Below are positions 1 to 9,180 of a stretch of DNA of 64,000 nucleotides, piece after piece. The position numbers and the translations under genes are program-made. The first letter of the stretch is position 1. Each line of letters starts with the position of its first letter. The stretch comes from Planctomycetota bacterium (GTDB taxonomy: Bacteria > Planctomycetota > Phycisphaerae > Phycisphaerales > SM1A02): positions 5,589 through 69,588 of the forward strand of contig JACZRS010000016.1 of the NCBI GenBank assembly GCA_022574595.1, written 5' to 3'. Below the pieces are notes generated by a model. It made no database searches. It was given only the letters and a program-made list of their open reading frames with translations, and was not told where the DNA came from.

Positions 1-1
1 A

Positions 2-916
2 ATGACGAACGGAAGCGTGTCAGCGGCGATGGCAACTGGGGCTTTATCCGTTGCGATCGTTTTGTTGTTGACCACGTGCGGGCAGGCTGATAAACCGGCG
101 CGCTCAGACAGCCGATCGGCATTCGCCTATGACCTTGCTCAGTCCCATCCCGACCAAGCGAGGCAAAGCGGCGATAATGTGCAGGCCGCTGAAGCCGACA
201 AGGCGGATGATATCGCAAAGGTGATCGATGAGTGGATGCCGCCGCAGCCGCCGGGTGCAACGGAGCGTGTTGTGGATCGGCAACGAATGGTCCAGCATCA
301 GATCGTTGACCCACCGGCCGGAAGAATACCGGTCAAGAACTATTCTGTGATCAAGGCGATGCGGACCGTACCTCGTCACGTGTTTGTCCCGGCCGATCTG
401 CGCAGCCGCGCTTACATCGACTCACCGCTACCGATCGGTAATGGACAGACCATCTCACAGCCATACATCGTTGCGTATATGACGGAGTTGCTACAACTTG
501 ATCCTGCTGCCAAAGTGCTCGAGATCGGTACCGGTTCAGGGTATCAAGCGGCCGTTCTCGCGCAGCTAACGCCGAACGTCTATACGATCGAAATCATTTC
601 CCCGCTCGCTAAGACAGCAAACAAGAGCTTGACAGAGCAAGGCTATAAGCAAGTGAAAACGAAACAAGGCGATGGGTATTTTGGGTGGGAGGAGCACGCG
701 CCGTTTGACGCCATCATCGTGACCGCGGCTGCAGGTCATATTCCACCACCGCTTTGGCAGCAGCTAAAACCCGGCGGGCGAATGGTTGTCCCCATCGGCG
801 GCGCCTATGAGGTCCAGCGCCTGCTTGTCGTTGAAAAGACAGAGGAAGGCAAGCGTCGCTCGAAATCGGTCATGGCAGTTCGATTCGTGCCACTGACCCG
901 TTCAACGGAGAAATAG
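2..916 (+). CDS. pcm: protein-L-isoaspartate O-methyltransferase with an N-terminal hydrophobic/linker extension; ATG is at nt 2, so the true start may lie left of the window
   Basis: SAM-binding motif VLEIGTGSGYQAAVLA and the PCMT C-terminal signature DAIIVTAAAGHIPPPLWQQLKPGGRMVVPIG are present in the translation. Confidence 0.75.
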   Translation: MTNGSVSAAMATGALSVAIVLLLTTCGQADKPARSDSRSAFAYDLAQSHPDQARQSGDNVQAAEADKADDIAKVIDEWMPPQPPGATERVVDRQRMVQHQIVDPPAGRIPVKNYSVIKAMRTVPRHVFVPADLRSRAYIDSPLPIGNGQTISQPYIVAYMTELLQLDPAAKVLEIGTGSGYQAAVLAQLTPNVYTIEIISPLAKTANKSLTEQGYKQVKTKQGDGYFGWEEHAPFDAIIVTAAAGHIPPPLWQQLKPGGRMVVPIGGAYEVQRLLVVEKTEEGKRRSKSVMAVRFVPLTRSTEK

Positions 917-921
917 CCGAC

Positions 922-3399
922 ATGGAGCGGTCCGCGGTGCGCCCAGTTTCCATAATACCATTGTGGCGTTTGATCTGGATCGTTGCCTGTGTTTCTGCAG
1001 GCCTGCTTGGCTTCGAAATCTCGCTGATGCGAATTTTGCTTGTCGCAAGCTGGCATCACTTTGCATTCCTTGTGATTGGTGTCGCATTGTTGGGTTTCGG
1101 AGCCAGCGGTACCGTCTTATGTATCTTTCGTGAATGGCTAATGAAACGCGGTGAAGCAGCGCTGTTTGTGTTGACGATCCTCACCGCCATGTCAATGCCC
1201 ATCTGCATGGCGCTGGCGCAGCAGATACCCATCGAGGCGAGATTTGTGCCAACGCTACTGTTGCAACAGCTCGGCAACTGGGTGTTATACTGGCTCGTTT
1301 TGGCAGTGCCGTTTCTGTTGGGAAGCGCGGCGATCGGGCTGGCGTTGATGCTCGCAGCGGATCGAGTTGCGTTGGTGTACGCAGCCAATCTTGCCGGAAG
1401 TGGTGTCGGCGCTGTGCTGGTCACGGCAGCGATGTATTACGTGCCGCCGCCGTGGCTCCCCTTGCTCATGTGTCTATTGGCGATCCCGGGTGTCTTGGCG
1501 GTGCGCTGCGGCAGCTTGGGGCTTCGGATCGGTGCGATGGTGACGGCAATCGCCTGCTTGACCTTGTGGCTTTGGGTTGACCCACCACAGATCCGCAGCG
1601 ATCCATTTAAGTATCTGGCTCACGTGCGACAGCTTGAACAGCAACACGTCGTTCGTCGCCTTGCTGCGGAGTTCAGTCCGCGCAGCACGATCGAGATCTA
1701 CCGCGGTGATGTGTTTCACGAATTCAACTTCTTGTCCATCGATGCCGTTGTGCCCGAGGTTGATGTCATTCTCATGGACGGTCACTTAGCCGGTTCGATG
1801 CTTCGTGTTGACCGAGTCAATGCCGGTGATGTGGTCGAGCATACCATGATGTCCGTACCGTATGCTCTCCTGCCCCAGCAGCCACGTGTTTTGCTGTTGG
1901 GCGAGGTCGGCGGAGGCAACGTCTGGCTCGCACAACGGCACGGCGCCGCGTCAATCCAACTTATCCAGCCCGATCAGGCATTGTTGCGTCTCTTAAATGG
2001 TCCGCTGCGCCACGACACAGGCAGGTTTCTTGCACTGCCCACGGTTGAAGTGTTCACCGCTGATCCCAGACATTTCGTTGAACATACCTCGTCGCAGTTC
2101 GATCTTATTCAACTTGTCAGCATGGAGTCAATGACGGCCGGCTCCGGAGGCATCGGGGGTCTCGCCGAAAACTACCTTATCACTGTCGAGGGACTTACCT
2201 CATCGTTGCGCGCGCTTACTGAACAGGGCGTGCTTTCGGTGTGTCGGGGTATCCAGGACCCACCGCGCGATAACCTCAAAATACTTACCACGCTCGTTGT
2301 GGCACTGCGCCGGCTCGGAATTTCACATCCCCAAGATCACATCGTAATCGTCCGTGACTTTCTGGCGGTTTGTACGCTTGTCAAACGTACGCCCTGGTCG
2401 CCTCAGCAGATCGAGACGGTTCGGGATCTCTGCTCGCAGCGCGATTTGACACCGGTCTGGTTCACGGGTATTCGTGACAACGAACTGAATTATCCAGACG
2501 AAATGCCGGGTCCTTCGGGCGCGTTGGGCGACTGGTACCACGAAGCTGCCCGGCAACTGTTCTCGATTGACAACGCATCTGCCTTCATTGACGACTGGAT
2601 GTTCGACATCCGCCCGACGACCGACTCCAGGCCGTTCTTCCTGGACTTCAGTAAATTGCGATCGCTTGGCGCGTTGCGGAAGGCGTACGGCGACATGTGG
2701 CTTACCCGCGCGGAACTTGCATACTTGTTCGTGCTCAGCGCAGCCGCCTTGGTTGCAATGGTCAGCGTGCTGTTGACCATCGTACCGCTGCTCCTGCTGC
2801 GATCGATCAGGCGATCATCAGGGAAAAGGGCAACCGCCGCGTATTTCGGGGCCATCGGCCTGGGATATCTGATGCTGGAGATGGTTGTGCTGTCAGCATT
2901 GACGCACTTGATCGGAGACCCCATCCACGCCGCCGCACTAACCATCGCCACGTTTTTGCTGTTCTCCGGTCTGGGGAGCATGCTCTCGCAGAGGTTCATC
3001 GTGCGATCGAGCCCAATAGTGAGCTGGTTGATCGTTGCTCTGGTCATCTTTGGGACTGTCGATCTCTTAGTGATCCTGCCCGTTGTTAATAGCTGGGCGG
3101 GCGCGTTCTCTTTCACAACGCGGTGTGCTCTAGGTGTACTGCCGGTCGCTCCATTGGCGTTTCTGATGGGTTTTCCGATGCCAAGCGGTCTGTACCGGCT
3201 TAATCGCGCCGCACCCAAGCTCATTCCCTGGGCGTGGGGCATCAACGGCTTCGCCTCGGTGCTCGCACCACCTTTGGCCATCGCTCTGGCCATGACCTGG
3301 AGCTATCACATCACCGCCAGCATCGCACTCCTTATGTATGTCGCTGCTACATTGCTGCTCCCGCGCTTGCCAGCTATGCAAGATGCTTCCGCTTCGTAA
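922..3399 (+). CDS. polytopic membrane protein with a central spermidine-synthase-like (aminopropyltransferase-fold) domain
   Basis: TM-rich N- and C-terminal thirds; central VLLLGEVGGGNVWLAQRHG ... FDLIQL block resembles the PABS fold; starts 6 nt after the pcm stop, so an operon is likely. Confidence 0.55.
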   Translation: MERSAVRPVSIIPLWRLIWIVACVSAGLLGFEISLMRILLVASWHHFAFLVIGVALLGFGASGTVLCIFREWLMKRGEAALFVLTILTAMSMPICMALAQQIPIEARFVPTLLLQQLGNWVLYWLVLAVPFLLGSAAIGLALMLAADRVALVYAANLAGSGVGAVLVTAAMYYVPPPWLPLLMCLLAIPGVLAVRCGSLGLRIGAMVTAIACLTLWLWVDPPQIRSDPFKYLAHVRQLEQQHVVRRLAAEFSPRSTIEIYRGDVFHEFNFLSIDAVVPEVDVILMDGHLAGSMLRVDRVNAGDVVEHTMMSVPYALLPQQPRVLLLGEVGGGNVWLAQRHGAASIQLIQPDQALLRLLNGPLRHDTGRFLALPTVEVFTADPRHFVEHTSSQFDLIQLVSMESMTAGSGGIGGLAENYLITVEGLTSSLRALTEQGVLSVCRGIQDPPRDNLKILTTLVVALRRLGISHPQDHIVIVRDFLAVCTLVKRTPWSPQQIETVRDLCSQRDLTPVWFTGIRDNELNYPDEMPGPSGALGDWYHEAARQLFSIDNASAFIDDWMFDIRPTTDSRPFFLDFSKLRSLGALRKAYGDMWLTRAELAYLFVLSAAALVAMVSVLLTIVPLLLLRSIRRSSGKRATAAYFGAIGLGYLMLEMVVLSALTHLIGDPIHAAALTIATFLLFSGLGSMLSQRFIVRSSPIVSWLIVALVIFGTVDLLVILPVVNSWAGAFSFTTRCALGVLPVAPLAFLMGFPMPSGLYRLNRAAPKLIPWAWGINGFASVLAPPLAIALAMTWSYHITASIALLMYVAATLLLPRLPAMQDASAS

Positions 3400-4055
3400 T
3401 CCGTTATAGGAAGGCGAAAACCGCATCCAGGCGTTTACTGAAGGACTGGAATAACGAATGCGAGCTAATTCTTGGTGGTAATTGGTCAAAGGAGTAGGTG
3501 ATCCGGGATGTAAGTCTGGCCATTCTTAACGTCGCCGTACTGTCTAAAACCTCGGCCGAAATAGCACCAAGCCACGCTAGCCTAAACCTCCAAGATGTGA
3601 CGACTTACAGATCGACCGAATTTTTATACAGTACGCGTCTGGTTAGTCGTCAATCACATCAAAGGACGCTATTTGGCTCGCAATGCGGACAAGCTGTGAT
3701 TTTCTCAAGACGAGAGTTATCGGTCCATGCTGTGCACAGTGAGGCATTTCACAAGCAAACCGCTTGTTTTTCCCGATGGCTTGGCAGACCCTTAGCTACG
3801 AATGGTGGATACGACGATGGCAGTCAAGCCTCAGGCAAAGCAATGGATCATTCGAGAGCAGATCATCGAGGACCCAGTTTCTGGACTGACTTTCCAATTC
3901 GAGGTGATGCCCAAGGGTGATGCCCGCTTGTACGTTTACGGGGATCTCCCGTTTGGGAACAGAGAATTCATCTTCGACAGCAAAGGAAAAGAGGCCGGTG
4001 CAGGCACTGCTATCACCGGTCTCTGTCGACCATCTTGGTTGCATATGTGTGAGCC

Positions 4056-4364
4056 TTAGGCGACCTTCTCGTTACACCTCGGTAGGCTGTTGTGGAGATT
4101 CTTGTACTCCTCCAAAAGTTCCTTCTCCCGTGCAACCGCAGATGACGTGATCTCCACGTTGAATGCAGTGGCATTCTTCGTGCAAGGGCCTTCGCGCCCC
4201 TCCCTATGATCCGTCAGTCGGGAGCGAATCGTCACTTCACCGCCTTGCGCACGGCCAAAGTAGATAATCGTCTCTCCTTCATAGAGCGAGTAGACGCCTG
4301 CCTCAGCGGCAACCTCCTTGATGTTGGCATCCGTGAACTGAATTTTGTCGGCTGTTATTGTCAT
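4056..4364 (-). CDS. small hypothetical protein (~103 aa)
   Basis: AGGAG lies 8 nt upstream of the ATG (MTITADKIQF...); the ORF-track N-terminal extension to 4475 is probably not translated; sits in a low-GC pocket. Confidence 0.3.
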   Translation of the reverse strand: MTITADKIQFTDANIKEVAAEAGVYSLYEGETIIYFGRAQGGEVTIRSRLTDHREGREGPCTKNATAFNVEITSSAVAREKELLEEYKNLHNSLPRCNEKVA

Positions 4365-4722
4365 GAGACTTACTCCTGTGTGAACGGTTACAATTCTGCC
4401 GTGAAACGATGCGGTGCATGGTACGGCGCCACAAGTAACAGTGCAAAAGGTCGCGGTTGTTCCCAGTGTTTTCAACAGTCCGGGTTCGACTACAGACGTT
4501 CCTATTGATCATCCGCTAAGACTTGGAGGAATTCTCGCAATGAAGAATAACTGTAAGTCTTTGCACAATAAGCAGTTCGGAGTTTTCGCCACGGAGAGGC
4601 ATATCAAAATGCAAATTCCGACGCGCGGATGCAAGTAAAGTACGCAATTACATTGAGCCCAATGCTCTGCATCTAAGTATAAGGATGCGTCCAGCTGCCA
4701 ATGGTGTTTAGTGCACCGAGGA

Positions 4723-4747
4723 CTACGTCCGAGAAGGGGCATTATGT
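4723..4747 (+). repeat. 25-nt exact direct repeat, copy A (CTACGTCCGAGAAGGGGCATTATGT)
   Basis: identical 25-mer recurs at 7112-7136; contains a GAAGGGG-N4-ATG arrangement. Confidence 0.8.
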
Positions 4748-4899
4748 CGCGGGGGTACTGCGAGCGAAGCAAGTGGATCGGCGGACTTCTTAAAGTCTAC
4801 CTAGCGGCGGTAATAATTTCTCGGCAAAATATTTCTCTCTCCGAGCTTGACCTTTGTACCAGCGCATACTATGGTACACAAAGTATGCGAGGCAAGACT

Positions 4900-5262
4900 A
4901 TGCGAATTGAACGTGAGATGATGCGGGGAGCGGGGCCCGTGGCGGTGCTTAAGCTCTTGGAGCCGGCGGAGATGTATGGGTACGAACTAGTGCGGGCCCT
5001 AGACGAGAGATCCGAAGGGGTCCTGGGGATGGGTCAGTCGACGCTTTACCCTATGCTCTACAACCTAGAGGCGAAGGGGCTGATTGCGTCACGATGGCTA
5101 GATAGCGACAATGGCCGCCCGCGCAAGTACTACCGCCTCACCCGCAAGGGACAAAAACGTCTGGCACACGATATCGCCCAGTGGCGGGCGCTGGTTAACG
5201 CGATGTCGGCGTTGGGTATCGTGCCCCAGCCGCAGACACGTTGTGAGGGAGTTACAACGTGA
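4900..5262 (+). CDS. PadR-family transcriptional regulator
   Basis: winged-helix PadR signature YGYELVRAL...STLYPMLYNLEAKGLI...RKYYRLTRKG; GAGG sits 7 nt before the ATG at 4900; the ORF-track start at 4711 is probably an artefactual extension. Confidence 0.8.
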   Translation: MRIEREMMRGAGPVAVLKLLEPAEMYGYELVRALDERSEGVLGMGQSTLYPMLYNLEAKGLIASRWLDSDNGRPRKYYRLTRKGQKRLAHDIAQWRALVNAMSALGIVPQPQTRCEGVTT

Positions 5263-6998
5263 CCCCAAGACGCCGCATCTGGCTGGATAAACTGATTGAA
5301 GAGAGCGAGCTGCCAACAGAATTGAGCGGGCTTGTTCGCGACATAGTGCAGCGTACGCATCTGTGGCGAGGTGAGAAGGCCGACGTCGCTGCCGAGCTCA
5401 TCTCGCATTTCCGGGATGGCCTCGAATTCGGCCGGACGTCCGAGGACTTGGCCCGATTGTTCGGCGACGCGAAACAGGCCGCCCGGCTCATCCGGCGGGC
5501 GCGCAAGCGGCAGCGACGGCTGCCGTGGCGGATCGTCCACCGTGGCTTACAGGCGACGGCGGTTGTCTTCGGTCTCTACCTGCTCGGCATCGTGTATTTC
5601 ATGCTGGGGCAGCCCGATCCCAAAGTGGACTATGTGGCATTGCTCAACGTCAAGTCGGCGGCCGTACCCGAGCACGAACGTGCCTGGCCTATGTACCGCG
5701 CTGCGCTACTCGCGCTTGGTGAGCCGCTGATGCACAACAGTCCCCGTCCCGGCGAGGATGACTGGGATGAAGTGGGGTCATACCTCCGAAAACACGTCGA
5801 CGTATTTGCGGATGTGCGCCGCGCAGCCGCCCGTCCGGATCTGGGTTTTGTCATCGGCTTCGAGCGCGATGAGCAAGACTTCGAACTGTGGCCTGACCTC
5901 GTCCCGACTATGAAGGACGGTCCGCTCGACTACTCGCTGTTCGCCATACTGCTGCCGCATCTTGCCGAAATGCGGCGCCTCGCCAGGCTCCTGGCGCTCG
6001 ACGCACACCGTGCAGCGGCCGAAAGCGACATCGACACCGCGCTGGCGGACATAGAAGCGATGCTCGGTATCGCCAGCCACGTCCGTGAGGCCCCAATTCT
6101 CATCAACGACCTCGTCGGAAACGCGGTCGCATCGCTCGCCATGGATACCAACGGTGAGCTGCTCGCGACCTATCCCGATGCATTCGACGACGATCAGCTT
6201 CGCCACCTTGCACACCGACTGAGCGTGATCGAGCCACTCTTCGGTGTGCGCTTCGACGGGGAGCGGTTCGGTTGGCGCGATCTCGTACAGCGCATCTACA
6301 CTGACGACGGTGATGGCGACGGTCGGCTGACAACCCGGGGCGTTACGGCGATGGAATATCTCGTCACCTTCCCGGGTACGACCATGTCGCCGCGCAAGGG
6401 CGGCACGGCAATCGTCGCCGGACCGTTGCTGCTGGCTACTGTGATGTCGCGCCGGGAGGCTTTGGAGCTGCACGAGCGCCTACTGGTGCAGTACGAGGTC
6501 GCGGCGGAGCGTCCAATGTGGGAATGGGGCTCGGGCCCGGGATTCGAGGCGGACAACCAGATTGCGAAGTGGAAGAGTTCGAAGCTGGACTCTGTCCGCT
6601 ACTTCCCACTCGTCCAGCTCATGCCCGGCCTCAGCCATGCAGCTAGGGTAAAGAAATACGGCCTCGCCCGACGTGATGCCTTGCTCGTCGCGATCGCGCT
6701 GGAGCTCGACCGTCGTCGGCGTGGAACGTGGGCGTCTAATTTAGACGATCTAGTGCCAGACTTGCTACCCACTGTTCCGCTTGATCAATTCAACGGCCGG
6801 CCGATCCGCTACGCGCTGGTCGACGGCACCCCGGTTGTCTACTCCGTGGGCAATGACCGGGACGATGACGGTGGGCGACGCTACGAGCTTGGCGGCAGCG
6901 CATGGAGCAACTCGGCCGGCGTTTGGACCGTTGACACGAATGCTACCAACGTCGTCGATGCCGATTGGGTGCTTTGGCCACCGGGTCGAGACAAGTAA
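5259..6998 (+). CDS. PadR-associated membrane signalling protein: N-terminal HAAS/DUF1700-like helical domain, one TM segment, and a ~450-aa extracytoplasmic domain of unknown function
   Basis: N-terminus LDKLIEESELPTELSGLVRDIVQ...ELISHFRDGLEFGRTSEDLARLFGD fits the DUF1700/HAAS pattern; single TM (AVVFGLYLLGIVYFML); GTG start overlaps the padR stop, suggesting translational coupling. Confidence 0.5.
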   Translation: MTPRRRIWLDKLIEESELPTELSGLVRDIVQRTHLWRGEKADVAAELISHFRDGLEFGRTSEDLARLFGDAKQAARLIRRARKRQRRLPWRIVHRGLQATAVVFGLYLLGIVYFMLGQPDPKVDYVALLNVKSAAVPEHERAWPMYRAALLALGEPLMHNSPRPGEDDWDEVGSYLRKHVDVFADVRRAAARPDLGFVIGFERDEQDFELWPDLVPTMKDGPLDYSLFAILLPHLAEMRRLARLLALDAHRAAAESDIDTALADIEAMLGIASHVREAPILINDLVGNAVASLAMDTNGELLATYPDAFDDDQLRHLAHRLSVIEPLFGVRFDGERFGWRDLVQRIYTDDGDGDGRLTTRGVTAMEYLVTFPGTTMSPRKGGTAIVAGPLLLATVMSRREALELHERLLVQYEVAAERPMWEWGSGPGFEADNQIAKWKSSKLDSVRYFPLVQLMPGLSHAARVKKYGLARRDALLVAIALELDRRRRGTWASNLDDLVPDLLPTVPLDQFNGRPIRYALVDGTPVVYSVGNDRDDDGGRRYELGGSAWSNSAGVWTVDTNATNVVDADWVLWPPGRDK

Positions 6999-7111
6999 TA
7001 CTCTGCTAGTGTGCCCGAGTCGTAGACCGTCGGATGAGTTTTGGAACACTACTGCATGTCAAGTTCATTGACCGGGAGGAGTGCCGAGCTAGGACAATGT
7101 GATGGCTGCAG

Positions 7112-7136
7112 CTACGTCCGAGAAGGGGCATTATGT
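7112..7136 (+). repeat. 25-nt exact direct repeat, copy B
   Basis: identical to 4723-4747; followed by a 21-codon ORF. Confidence 0.8.
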
Positions 7137-7333
7137 TATGGGAATGTGGATTGGCCGCTGCCGGGTTGGCGAAATATAGAGCCGAAAAGATCACTTGATG
7201 AGCTTGTAAGAATTTTGAAACCAGTCGCGATCGCAGAGATCGGCTAGGAGGACTTCTTCGATCCTACCGAACGGCCGCTTGATTTTCTCTGCCGAATTCT
7301 GATATTCTATCTGCGCTTGCCGAAAATCAAAAT

Positions 7334-7371
7334 CGGATAATTATCCGCGAACCGTCGAATGTTGGTATAAT
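7334..7371 (+). promoter_or_regulatory. candidate promoter: extended -10 (TGgTATAAT, 7363-7371) with the palindrome CGGATAATTATCCG over the -35 region
   Basis: read directly from sequence; would give a transcript start near 7378, upstream of the tRNA-like element. Confidence 0.3.
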
Positions 7372-7436
7372 GTTAGCATAGTTTGTAAAGACAAAACCGC
7401 GTTTACGCGGCAATAATCAGGGTTTTGCAGCCATTT

Positions 7437-7485
7437 GGGGTGTTCGACACGCAGGGGGTCACTGGTTCGAGTCCAGTACGGCCCA
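7437..7485 (+). ncRNA. tRNA-like minihelix with acceptor stem and T-arm only (tmRNA-TLD-like); alternatively a 3' tRNA/tmRNA fragment left as an att remnant
   Basis: canonical T-arm ACTGG-TTCGAGT-CCAGT (G53, T54 T55 C56, C61); 3' acceptor ACGGCCC plus discriminator A pairs 6 of 7 with 5' GGGGTGT; the 5' end carries the tmRNA-like GGGG-NN-UUCGAC signature; no anticodon arm fits. Confidence 0.35.
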
Positions 7486-7491
7486 TTAATC

Positions 7492-7529
7492 GCAAACCCT
7501 CGCAAGCGCAGGGTTTGTTAGATTTTGTG
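7492..7529 (+). terminator. rho-independent terminator after the tRNA-like element
   Basis: GCAAACCCT-cgcaagcgc-AGGGTTTGT stem-loop followed by TAGATTTTGTG. Confidence 0.45.
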
Positions 7530-7650
7530 ATGGAATTGATCGCGGCTTTACAACTCTTGGCGCATTCCGCATGGCTGGTTATTCCCACCCGGATCTTCGC
7601 AAAGCCTCAGGTCCGGCTTACTTGATACCATGATGCCTTGTTGCCATTTT

Positions 7651-9180
7651 TCAAAACACTTTGCGTCGTCTTGCGGGTGGGATGTCTAATTGCTGGCGAT
7701 ATTTAACGACTGTTCGCCTCGCAATTTCTATGCCGTGCTTTTTCAGTTCATCGGATAATGCTGCATCTGACCATGGGCTGGATTTGTCTTCGCCATCTAT
7801 AATTTCTTTTAACTTCGCTTTGACAGCTTCCCACGATAGATCTTCACCACTATCAGTTGCGGTTCCGCCAGAGAAGAATTTACGGAGTGCTACTTGCCCG
7901 CGCGGAGTTTGCATCCACTTATCAGAAACTGCTCGGCTAACTGTTGCAACATGTATTCCAAGTTGGTCGGCTACATCAATCATGGGTAACGGCTTTAGGT
8001 GTTGTGGGCCGTGGTCAAAATAATCTCGTTGTCGCGTCAGAACAACATTAACCACACGAAGCAAAGTATTTTTCCGCTGGTTTATCGATTCAATTAACCA
8101 CTGTGCGTTACGAACATTATTTGTAACGAACGCGCGCGTTGCTTTCTCAACGGTCTTGTCCTTGGCCATGGTCTGGTATTGCCTGGAAATTCGCAGCGAA
8201 GGCAAAACACCATCACACAAAGCAGCTACGTATATGTCAGCTTCTTCATCATAATCAACTAGAACATCAGGAATGATCGGTGGAACATCCTCATCAACAA
8301 CATCTCGGCCTGGGCTTAAATTCAGTTTGTGCATCAACTCCATGGCAATTTGTATGTCCTGGATTGATACGTTCTTCTTCTGGGCAATCTTGGGCAAACG
8401 ATTCTGAAGTAAATCATCGTAGTGATCTGCTATCAATTCACGCACTTCTTGCCAAGTTGGGTCGTGACCTGGTTCAGATAGGAAGCGATCGACTTGCAGC
8501 AACATACATTCCTGATGATTCCGCGCCCCGACGCCGGGCGGATCGAGTCGCTCTTGAATTTCCTTCAGCGCATTTTCCAGCAATTCTAAAGTAAATTCCT
8601 GTCCGGGCACATTTTTACTTTGTTCGAGAATTGTCTCAAGATCCCCGTCAAGCAAACCATCATCATTTATATATGTAATCAACAATTCCCCAGCACTTGT
8701 TATGTCACTTTCAACTTCTGCAAATGTCCATTGATGAGATAATTGTTCCGCTAATCTTTCACCACGTGCGGGCATATTTGCAAAGGCATCCATCTTGCGG
8801 TCGCGCTCGCCATCATTTCTTGCTCGTGAAAATGTGCCTGATGAGTATTGATTATCAAAGGCATCTTGATAGCCGGATTCTAATTCACCAAGACGCTCCC
8901 AATCATCGGCAGTATCTTTACCATCTTCTCCTACTACCAGTTCGCGCTGCTCTAAGCTTTCTGCATTGTCATCGTCTGTCGTGCTTGGAGCATCCGAATC
9001 AGCTTCATGCTCAATCTGCTCGAGCGCGATGTTGGATTCCAATTCCTGATCAATGCGTTCCTGCAATGCCAGCATAGGCATCTGCAGAATCTCCATGGAT
9101 TGGATCATGCGCGGTGACAGCTTCATGTGCTGCCCCATTTGCATTTGTTGGCTGGTTTCGAATCGCATATGCACTACCAA
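7651..9180 (-). CDS. rpoN: RNA polymerase sigma-54 factor
   Basis: Gln/Met-rich region I; C-terminal RpoN box [12 protein letters not shown]. Confidence 0.9.

Follow-up and report, generated by a model that had tools for sequence, protein, structure and literature searches.

Alignment to intact tRNA genes identifies the element at 7444-7485 on the plus strand of the window (the whole 64-kb stretch of DNA that was analysed) as the leftover 3' part of a tRNA-Val(GAC) gene, running from the anticodon loop to the 3' end. It is probably not a gene of its own but the scar of foreign DNA that integrated into this tRNA-Val(GAC) gene by site-specific recombination. In a first-pass annotation the locus had been presented as a self-contained small-RNA gene that encodes a tRNA-like minihelix with a tmRNA-like 5' signature. 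This discovery claim does not stand: there is no covariance-model or ARAGORN call, the 3:70 pair is G-C, a tag frame is lacking, and both the proposed 5' strand and the promoter are found at chance level. The junction 7443/7444 would instead be the base-exact end of a putative segment, at least 13 kb long, that an uncultured Phycisphaerae-type planctomycete acquired horizontally and, if the integration reading is true, tRNA-Val(GAC) is an integration target in this lineage. The coordinates of all features are collected in Table 1.

Table 1. Features of the window, of the sequence upstream of it (contig L123) and of the integrated element in locus L026
Feature	Position	Strand	Evidence
Window
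Distal part of putative island	1-7443		GC, GC3, repeats, no synteny
Repeat copies	4725-4747; 7114-7227		Repeat search
Palindrome CGGATAATTATCCG	7334-7347		Sequence; hairpin scan lists minus-strand hairpin
Extended -10-like motif TGGTATAAT	7363-7371	+	Sequence
GGGGTGT, claimed 5' acceptor strand	7437-7443	+	Sequence; pairing test
tRNA-Val(GAC) 3' fragment, positions 32-73	7444-7485	+	Alignment A1
Anticodon loop TCGACAC	7444-7450	+	Alignment A1
Anticodon GAC	7446-7448	+	Alignment A1
Anticodon stem, 3' strand GCAGG	7451-7455	+	Alignment A1
Variable loop GGGTC	7456-7460	+	Alignment A1
T arm ACTGG-TTCGAGT-CCAGT	7461-7477	+	Sequence
3' acceptor strand ACGGCCC	7478-7484	+	Sequence
Discriminator A (A73)	7485	+	Sequence
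Terminator-like hairpin (7493-7517) and U-rich tail (7518-7529)	7493-7529	+	Fold
Core chromosome adjoining fragment; rpoN (7651-9126), then recR, ybaB, dnaX	7530-9126	-	Pfam, synteny
Conserved post-rpoN motif TCGCGGCTTTACA, 13 nt	7540-7552		Common to relatives just after rpoN
L123 (position = window + 5608)
Repeat copies	160-194; 1849-2023; 3073-3248; 5160-5381		Repeat search
L026
Tyrosine integrase (PF00589/PF13102), overlaps 3' end of tRNA-Val(CAC)	2393-3730	-	Pfam
Rep ORF2/G2P-like protein	4259-5470		Pfam
Orphan tRNA 3' fragment from T loop	6162-6183	same orientation as tRNA	Sequence

The element corresponds to positions 32-73 of tRNA-Val(GAC)

An alignment of the window fragment with 11 intact tRNA-Val(GAC) genes from Planctomycetota and Acidimicrobiia (alignment A1) needed no gaps and matched the element to their positions 32-73. 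Invariant columns were found from the GACA of the anticodon loop and from GGTC to A73. Read in order, the fragment is TCGACAC-GCAGG-GGGTC-ACTGG-TTCGAGT-CCAGT-ACGGCCC-A. The T arm, the 3' acceptor strand with its terminal A and the GGGGTGT upstream are thus all present as the first-pass annotation had quoted them. Its statement that neither a D arm nor an anticodon arm can be fitted holds for the 5' half, which is absent, but not for the anticodon loop and the 3' strand of the anticodon stem, which are present. No counterpart of the tRNA 5' half (acceptor 5' strand, D arm and 5' strand of the anticodon stem) was seen upstream of 7444 in alignment A1. The expected 5' strand of the anticodon stem is CCTGC and the window has GGTGT at this place; the 5' half of a tRNA-Val gene reads GGGCCGTTAGCTCAG... 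At its 3' end the fragment does not encode CCA and is followed by ATT, both of which are also seen in several planctomycete tRNA-Val genes. A tRNA lacking the D arm and starting at 7420 (GGGTTTT) was rejected, as only three of the five anticodon-stem pairs are possible and no detector called it.

One genome per species was scanned with the 3' 21 nt of the fragment (GGTTCGAGTCCAGTACGGCCC). At least 118 loci were recovered, and ARAGORN, run on these loci, identified nearly all as intact tRNA-Val or tRNA-Lys genes. Among the matches listed, about 110 intact tRNA-Val or tRNA-Lys genes are identical to the fragment over these 21 nt; the tRNA-Val genes (anticodon GAC, CAC or TAC) belong to Planctomycetota, Verrucomicrobiota and Actinomycetota, the tRNA-Lys genes to Elusimicrobiota, Acidobacteriota and Thermodesulfobacteriota. 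An intact tRNA elsewhere with an identical 3' end, which the first-pass annotation had regarded as incompatible with its reading, is found across genomes, dozens of intact tRNA-Val genes among the matches listed having the 3' 26-30 nt of the fragment in common. Within the 64-kb window there was no second copy of the fragment when up to three mismatches were allowed, and a JGI metagenome scan with a 33-mer of the fragment gave no match. A scan of viral contigs gave one match, an intact tRNA-Val(GAC) on a provirus-type contig and not an attP fragment.

U is the almost universal base at tRNA position 33. The window fragment carries C at this position (7445), as do many tRNA-Val(GAC) genes of Phycisphaerae, Planctomycetaceae and Acidimicrobiia, with the loop TCGACAC or CCGACAC (loci L010, L014, L024, L042, L050, L068, L080 and L083). 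The tRNA-Val(GAC) genes of Pirellulaceae have T33 (TTGACAT).

The fragment lies at a boundary of synteny, composition and repeat content

On its 3' side the fragment adjoins core chromosome. The rpoN-recR-ybaB-dnaX block next to it has GC3 values of 0.36-0.47, and the order guaA..dnaX-ybaB-recR-rpoN is the same in relatives from Phycisphaerales/Planctomycetota (RpoN identity 67-76%). Synteny with the Phycisphaerales relatives extends from guaA to rpoN and ends at most ~100 nt from the fragment; the 13-nt motif just after rpoN is common to relatives, which places core DNA up to ~100 nt from the fragment. To the left of this short motif no similarity was detected in the rpoN loci of six relatives, and the region downstream of rpoN is different in every relative examined. 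None of the six has any tRNA, and hence no tRNA-Val, beside rpoN, and no empty site is documented among these loci.

The relatives carry, after rpoN, a unit GCGCGACCACTGGTCGCGGCTTTACA (a hairpin plus GGCTTTACA) in one to three tandem copies (L127 5999-6100, L132 4506-4640, L133 1591-1640). The window keeps only half of it, TCGCGGCTTTACA. This unit might be an rpoN 3' element or a terminator.

The 5' side is different. Its GC content is 57% (1-7000) versus 47% for 7651-64000, where 7-kb windows range from 45 to 51%, and gene GC3 is 0.62-0.73 on the 5' side versus 0.36-0.52 on the 3' side (7651-64000). No synteny with the relatives was found on the 5' side of the fragment. A dispersed intergenic repeat is present in at least six copies in the 13 kb of the 5' side and in none in the 56 kb of the 3' side. 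The putative island continues for at least 5.6 kb upstream of the window start and hence measures at least 13 kb in all. Within the window it encodes a PCMT methyltransferase, an 825-aa protein of unknown function, a PadR regulator and its 579-aa membrane-type partner; the 5.6 kb before the window start encode a PQQ-type dehydrogenase, a 189-aa protein of unknown function and an M29 peptidase. The PCMT, PadR, partner, dehydrogenase and peptidase genes have the look of ordinary cargo or chromosomal genes. The usual place of an integrase is beside the intact tRNA, on the end of the island opposite the fragment. No integrase or mobility gene was found among the ORFs of the readable 13 kb on the island side, and no tRNA in the window or in the 5.6 kb upstream of it. 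Four contigs of the same species (99.99% identical, found by exact-protein look-up) extend 5.6 kb past the window start and then run into the dispersed repeat.

The repeat units reach about 220 nt, are 77-92% identical and contain a 21-nt core box (GTCCGAGAAGGGGCATTATGT). Three long same-species contigs end in or beside a copy. The exact box also occurs in seven JGI metagenome contigs with mostly unrelated flanks, one of which (L139) has the longer unit too. It could serve as a promoter or as a regulatory box, or else represent a small mobile repeat.

The PadR regulator and the 579-aa protein (4711-6998) have overlapping stop and start codons and are translationally coupled; the latter shows a weak N-terminal match to the HAAS domain. 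The pair recurs throughout Phycisphaerae, with 139 homologues at E<=1e-5, in neighbourhoods that vary by genome; L134 carries it at 6292-8396. In another genome, too, the pair is somewhat GC-richer than its surroundings, so that the composition step may in part be intrinsic to these genes. This weakens the composition argument a little, but not the GC3 contrast of the whole segment. Because homologues of the 579-aa protein are widespread in Phycisphaerae, best-match taxonomy yields no evidence of a foreign donor.

Integration into tRNA-Val(GAC) as the probable origin of the fragment

For islands in tRNA genes the published rule is that the island separates the tDNA from a 3' fragment, which has the same orientation and lies on the downstream side (PMC4383910). 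Among mapped islands, 3' fragments were present in 3760 of 3919 and anticodon-centred sites in 2083 of 3919; the crossover sublocations are the anticodon loop, the T loop and the T/acceptor junction (PMC4383910). The window agrees with this rule, with variable, higher-GC DNA 5' of the fragment and core DNA 3' of it. Islander criteria ask for an end fragment that reaches the tRNA 3' end, starts at a known crossover sublocation and overlaps no conserved CDS, with an island side unlike the core, an intact cognate tRNA gene upstream on the same replicon in matching orientation, and a tyrosine integrase gene in the interval. Here the fragment covers positions 32-73, up to A73, and starts with the first bases of the anticodon loop; it overlaps no conserved CDS, and its two flanks contrast in composition and synteny. 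Neither the cognate tRNA nor an integrase was found in the 13 kb readable on the island side.

Foreign DNA would thus have integrated in the tRNA-Val(GAC) gene, parting its 5' half from its 3' part, with a tyrosine integrase as the likely agent and the crossover in the anticodon loop. The incoming attP, which would have carried its own copy of the tRNA 3' sequence, would have rebuilt a working tRNA gene at the near end. The original 3' part, together with its terminator and its old neighbours (rpoN), would then have ended up at the far end, on the downstream side of the rebuilt tRNA and with its orientation unchanged. We infer that the fragment was made by an integrase, and that this integrase and the intact tRNA-Val are to be sought beyond 13 kb upstream; an island at this site may be long, exceeding 13 kb, or old and decayed. 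Among the alternatives of the first-pass annotation, the one listed last, a displaced 3' part of a tRNA/ssrA target, comes closest. It is right in kind, but the target is tRNA-Val(GAC) rather than ssrA and the displaced piece measures 42 nt, not 49 nt.

A few comparable orphan fragments were found at other loci, and they begin at known crossover sublocations. Two of them (L100 and L028) begin at the very nucleotide of the anticodon loop where the window fragment begins; the orphans of L031, L081 and L026 (second match) begin at the T loop. L026, from a Planctomycetaceae MAG, contains a complete miniature integrated element (2360-6183, 3.7 kb in all) in which an intact tRNA-Val(CAC), the integrase, the Rep protein and the 3' fragment follow one another in this order.

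A pseudo-tRNA would account for the same 42 nt if its 5' half had been lost by deletion, by rearrangement or by illegitimate insertion of the higher-GC segment, no integrase being involved. That neither an integrase nor an intact partner tRNA was found within 13 kb speaks for such an origin, as does the variability downstream of rpoN, which marks this region as rearrangement-prone. We nevertheless consider it unlikely, because the break falls precisely on the 5' border of the anticodon loop, the commonest integrase sublocation (PMC4383910), and the independent orphans L100 and L028 share its start nucleotide. A random break is unlikely to fall at the edge of the anticodon loop, and luck would be needed.

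The chromosome OZ243946 (Acidimicrobiales) carries two tRNA-Val(CAC) 3' ends 3.6 kb apart (L074 4365-4440 and 7954-7974); one of the two genes is intact and the other is cut by the locus end. The orphan in L028 (290-310), a tRNA-Val(GAC)-type fragment from the anticodon loop, is located on the same chromosome. The downstream flanks of the OZ243946 copies are similar (ACCCGCA..CCCAGATCGAGGCG), and from its sequence the arrangement looks like tandem or repeated integration at tRNA-Val.

Logan contigs of two samples end inside the fragment, at the border of variable loop and T stem: L122 at GTCACTGG (window about 7459) and L143 at GGTCACTGG (equivalent to window about 7458). L143 represents a different strain, with indels in the spacer between rpoN and the fragment and a terminator hairpin that is remodelled but intact. 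These contig breaks indicate that the tRNA 3' sequence is repeated in the two samples; a duplicate within one genome need not follow, because tRNA-Val genes of other planctomycetes share the 30-mer.

Flanking signals and the small-RNA reading

The first-pass annotation had paired GGGGTGT with the 3' acceptor strand ACGGCCC. Six of the seven positions do pair, but with one G·G mismatch and one G·U, and the match is at chance level: about 20% of random sequences of the local composition contain a 7-mer as good within 40 nt upstream, and GGGTTTT at 7420 pairs equally well. Most likely GGGGTGT is nothing more than the island-side sequence that adjoins the crossover. The extended -10 motif is likewise present, but at chance count (TGNTATAAT occurs twice in the 64-kb window, with 2.06 occurrences expected) and with no -35 match; a promoter scan did not list it. 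The palindrome that had been described is present and lies beside the crossover, in the arm region of the island side. ORFs of 80 aa or more are absent from 7072-7650.

The hairpin of the proposed terminator proved to be real. It is followed by UUAGAUUUUGUG and has a folding energy of -16 kcal/mol (z = -3.4 versus shuffles); a simple terminator scan missed it, the stem being bulged and the U tract interrupted. The other strain, L143, retains the hairpin in spite of substitutions, one of which replaces both partners of an A-U pair by C-G, and has a better U tract. The hairpin begins 8 nt past A73, the distance expected of a native tRNA gene. We read it as the native terminator of the split tRNA-Val gene; it follows the fragment directly, where a native tRNA 3' flank would place it.

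An expressed small RNA of ~110-150 nt, extending from TGGTATAAT to the terminator and using the minihelix as a tRNA mimic or decoy, would bring together three features of one orientation, namely the -10-like motif, a leader rich in hairpins and a good terminator. The MFE fold indeed contains a 10-bp T-arm/acceptor minihelix (GGGUC-ACUGG/CCAGU-(AC)-GGCCC), and the terminator is conserved in the second strain. Such a gene is still very improbable. Its promoter does not rise above chance, the folds are ordinary in comparison with shuffles (50-mer, z = -1.3; putative 159-nt transcript, z = -1.9), and the terminator is accounted for by the ancestral tRNA gene. In addition, a related copy was found only within the same species, and no Rfam family matched. 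A role acquired later is just as doubtful: the fragment could have been co-opted, being transcribed from the TGGTATAAT at the island end, ended by the old tRNA terminator and processed as a CCA-tailed minihelix that acts as a regulator or decoy in the manner of a tRNA half. Putative targets of a decoy would be, for example, the CCA-adding enzyme, ValRS, EF-Tu or a tRNA-targeting toxin.

RNA gene models do not support a tRNA or tmRNA

ARAGORN, run on the whole 64-kb window, reported no tRNA, no tmRNA in standard or permuted form, and no tag. At gathering thresholds no Rfam family matched. When 7250-7600 was searched at E<=10, the only match was to the general tRNA family RF00005, which scored 16.4 bits (gathering score 29; E = 1) and passed over the D and anticodon arms; the tmRNA families gave no match at all. 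A complete cloverleaf above the model threshold, as required of a canonical tRNA, is therefore lacking, and the first-pass annotation was correct in not calling one. It was equally correct that an mRNA-like domain with a tag frame is absent, since only 17 nt separate GGGGTGT from the T arm.

The reading of GGGG-UG-UUCGAC as a tmRNA hallmark did not survive: junction sequence and the anticodon loop of tRNA-Val produce it by coincidence. UUCGAC belongs to the anticodon loop, and the 37 nt that follow equal tRNA-Val genes at every base. The G3·U70 pair that confers alanine identity and defines tmRNA is absent because, in the proposed pairing, 3:70 would be G-C (and 4:69 G·G). The T loop and acceptor of this sequence are found, among the loci listed, in tRNA-Val and tRNA-Lys genes and not in tmRNA genes. 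A tmRNA-derived element, whether a TLD-only molecule or an ssrA remnant that served as integration target, has the superficial GGGG..UUCGAC reading and the T arm in its favour and nothing else, and in view of the negative ARAGORN and Rfam searches and the G-C at 3:70 it can practically be dismissed.

Two cautions for sequence scans follow from this locus. A T arm and a 3' acceptor strand, joined by a chance 5' complement, can mimic a tRNA-like minihelix, and "UUCGAC" can be the anticodon loop of tRNA-Val and not a tmRNA signature.

Comparison with known systems

Examples of TLD-only tmRNAs are the mitochondrial tmRNAs of jakobids. The locus resembles the tmRNA TLD in its T arm, whose loop is GGTTCGA, in its G-rich 5' end and, in the earlier minihelix model, in the absence of a D or anticodon arm. 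It differs in lacking G3·U70, a D-loop analogue, the P2 helix, a tag frame and a model match, and from position 32 on its sequence is that of tRNA-Val.

The L026 element resembles the present locus in the 21-nt tRNA 3' end, in the phylum, in the logic of its orientation and in having an orphan fragment that ARAGORN does not call. It differs in that its fragment starts at the T loop rather than the anticodon loop, and in that the island, very small and complete, carries its integrase next to the tRNA.

The closest likeness is to the anticodon-loop (class 'A') scars collected by Islander; class 'A' was reportedly the designation given by Williams in 2002 to sites with an anticodon-loop crossover in tRNA genes. 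The present case differs from these scars in that no intact tRNA partner, integrase or mobility gene was found in the 13 kb available of its island side. Like them, the fragment runs from the anticodon loop to the discriminator base, lies outside any CDS and marks a sharp boundary of composition and synteny, with variable DNA 5' and the native terminator and core genes 3'. The feature adds one undescribed case to a thoroughly familiar kind, the displaced tDNA fragment.
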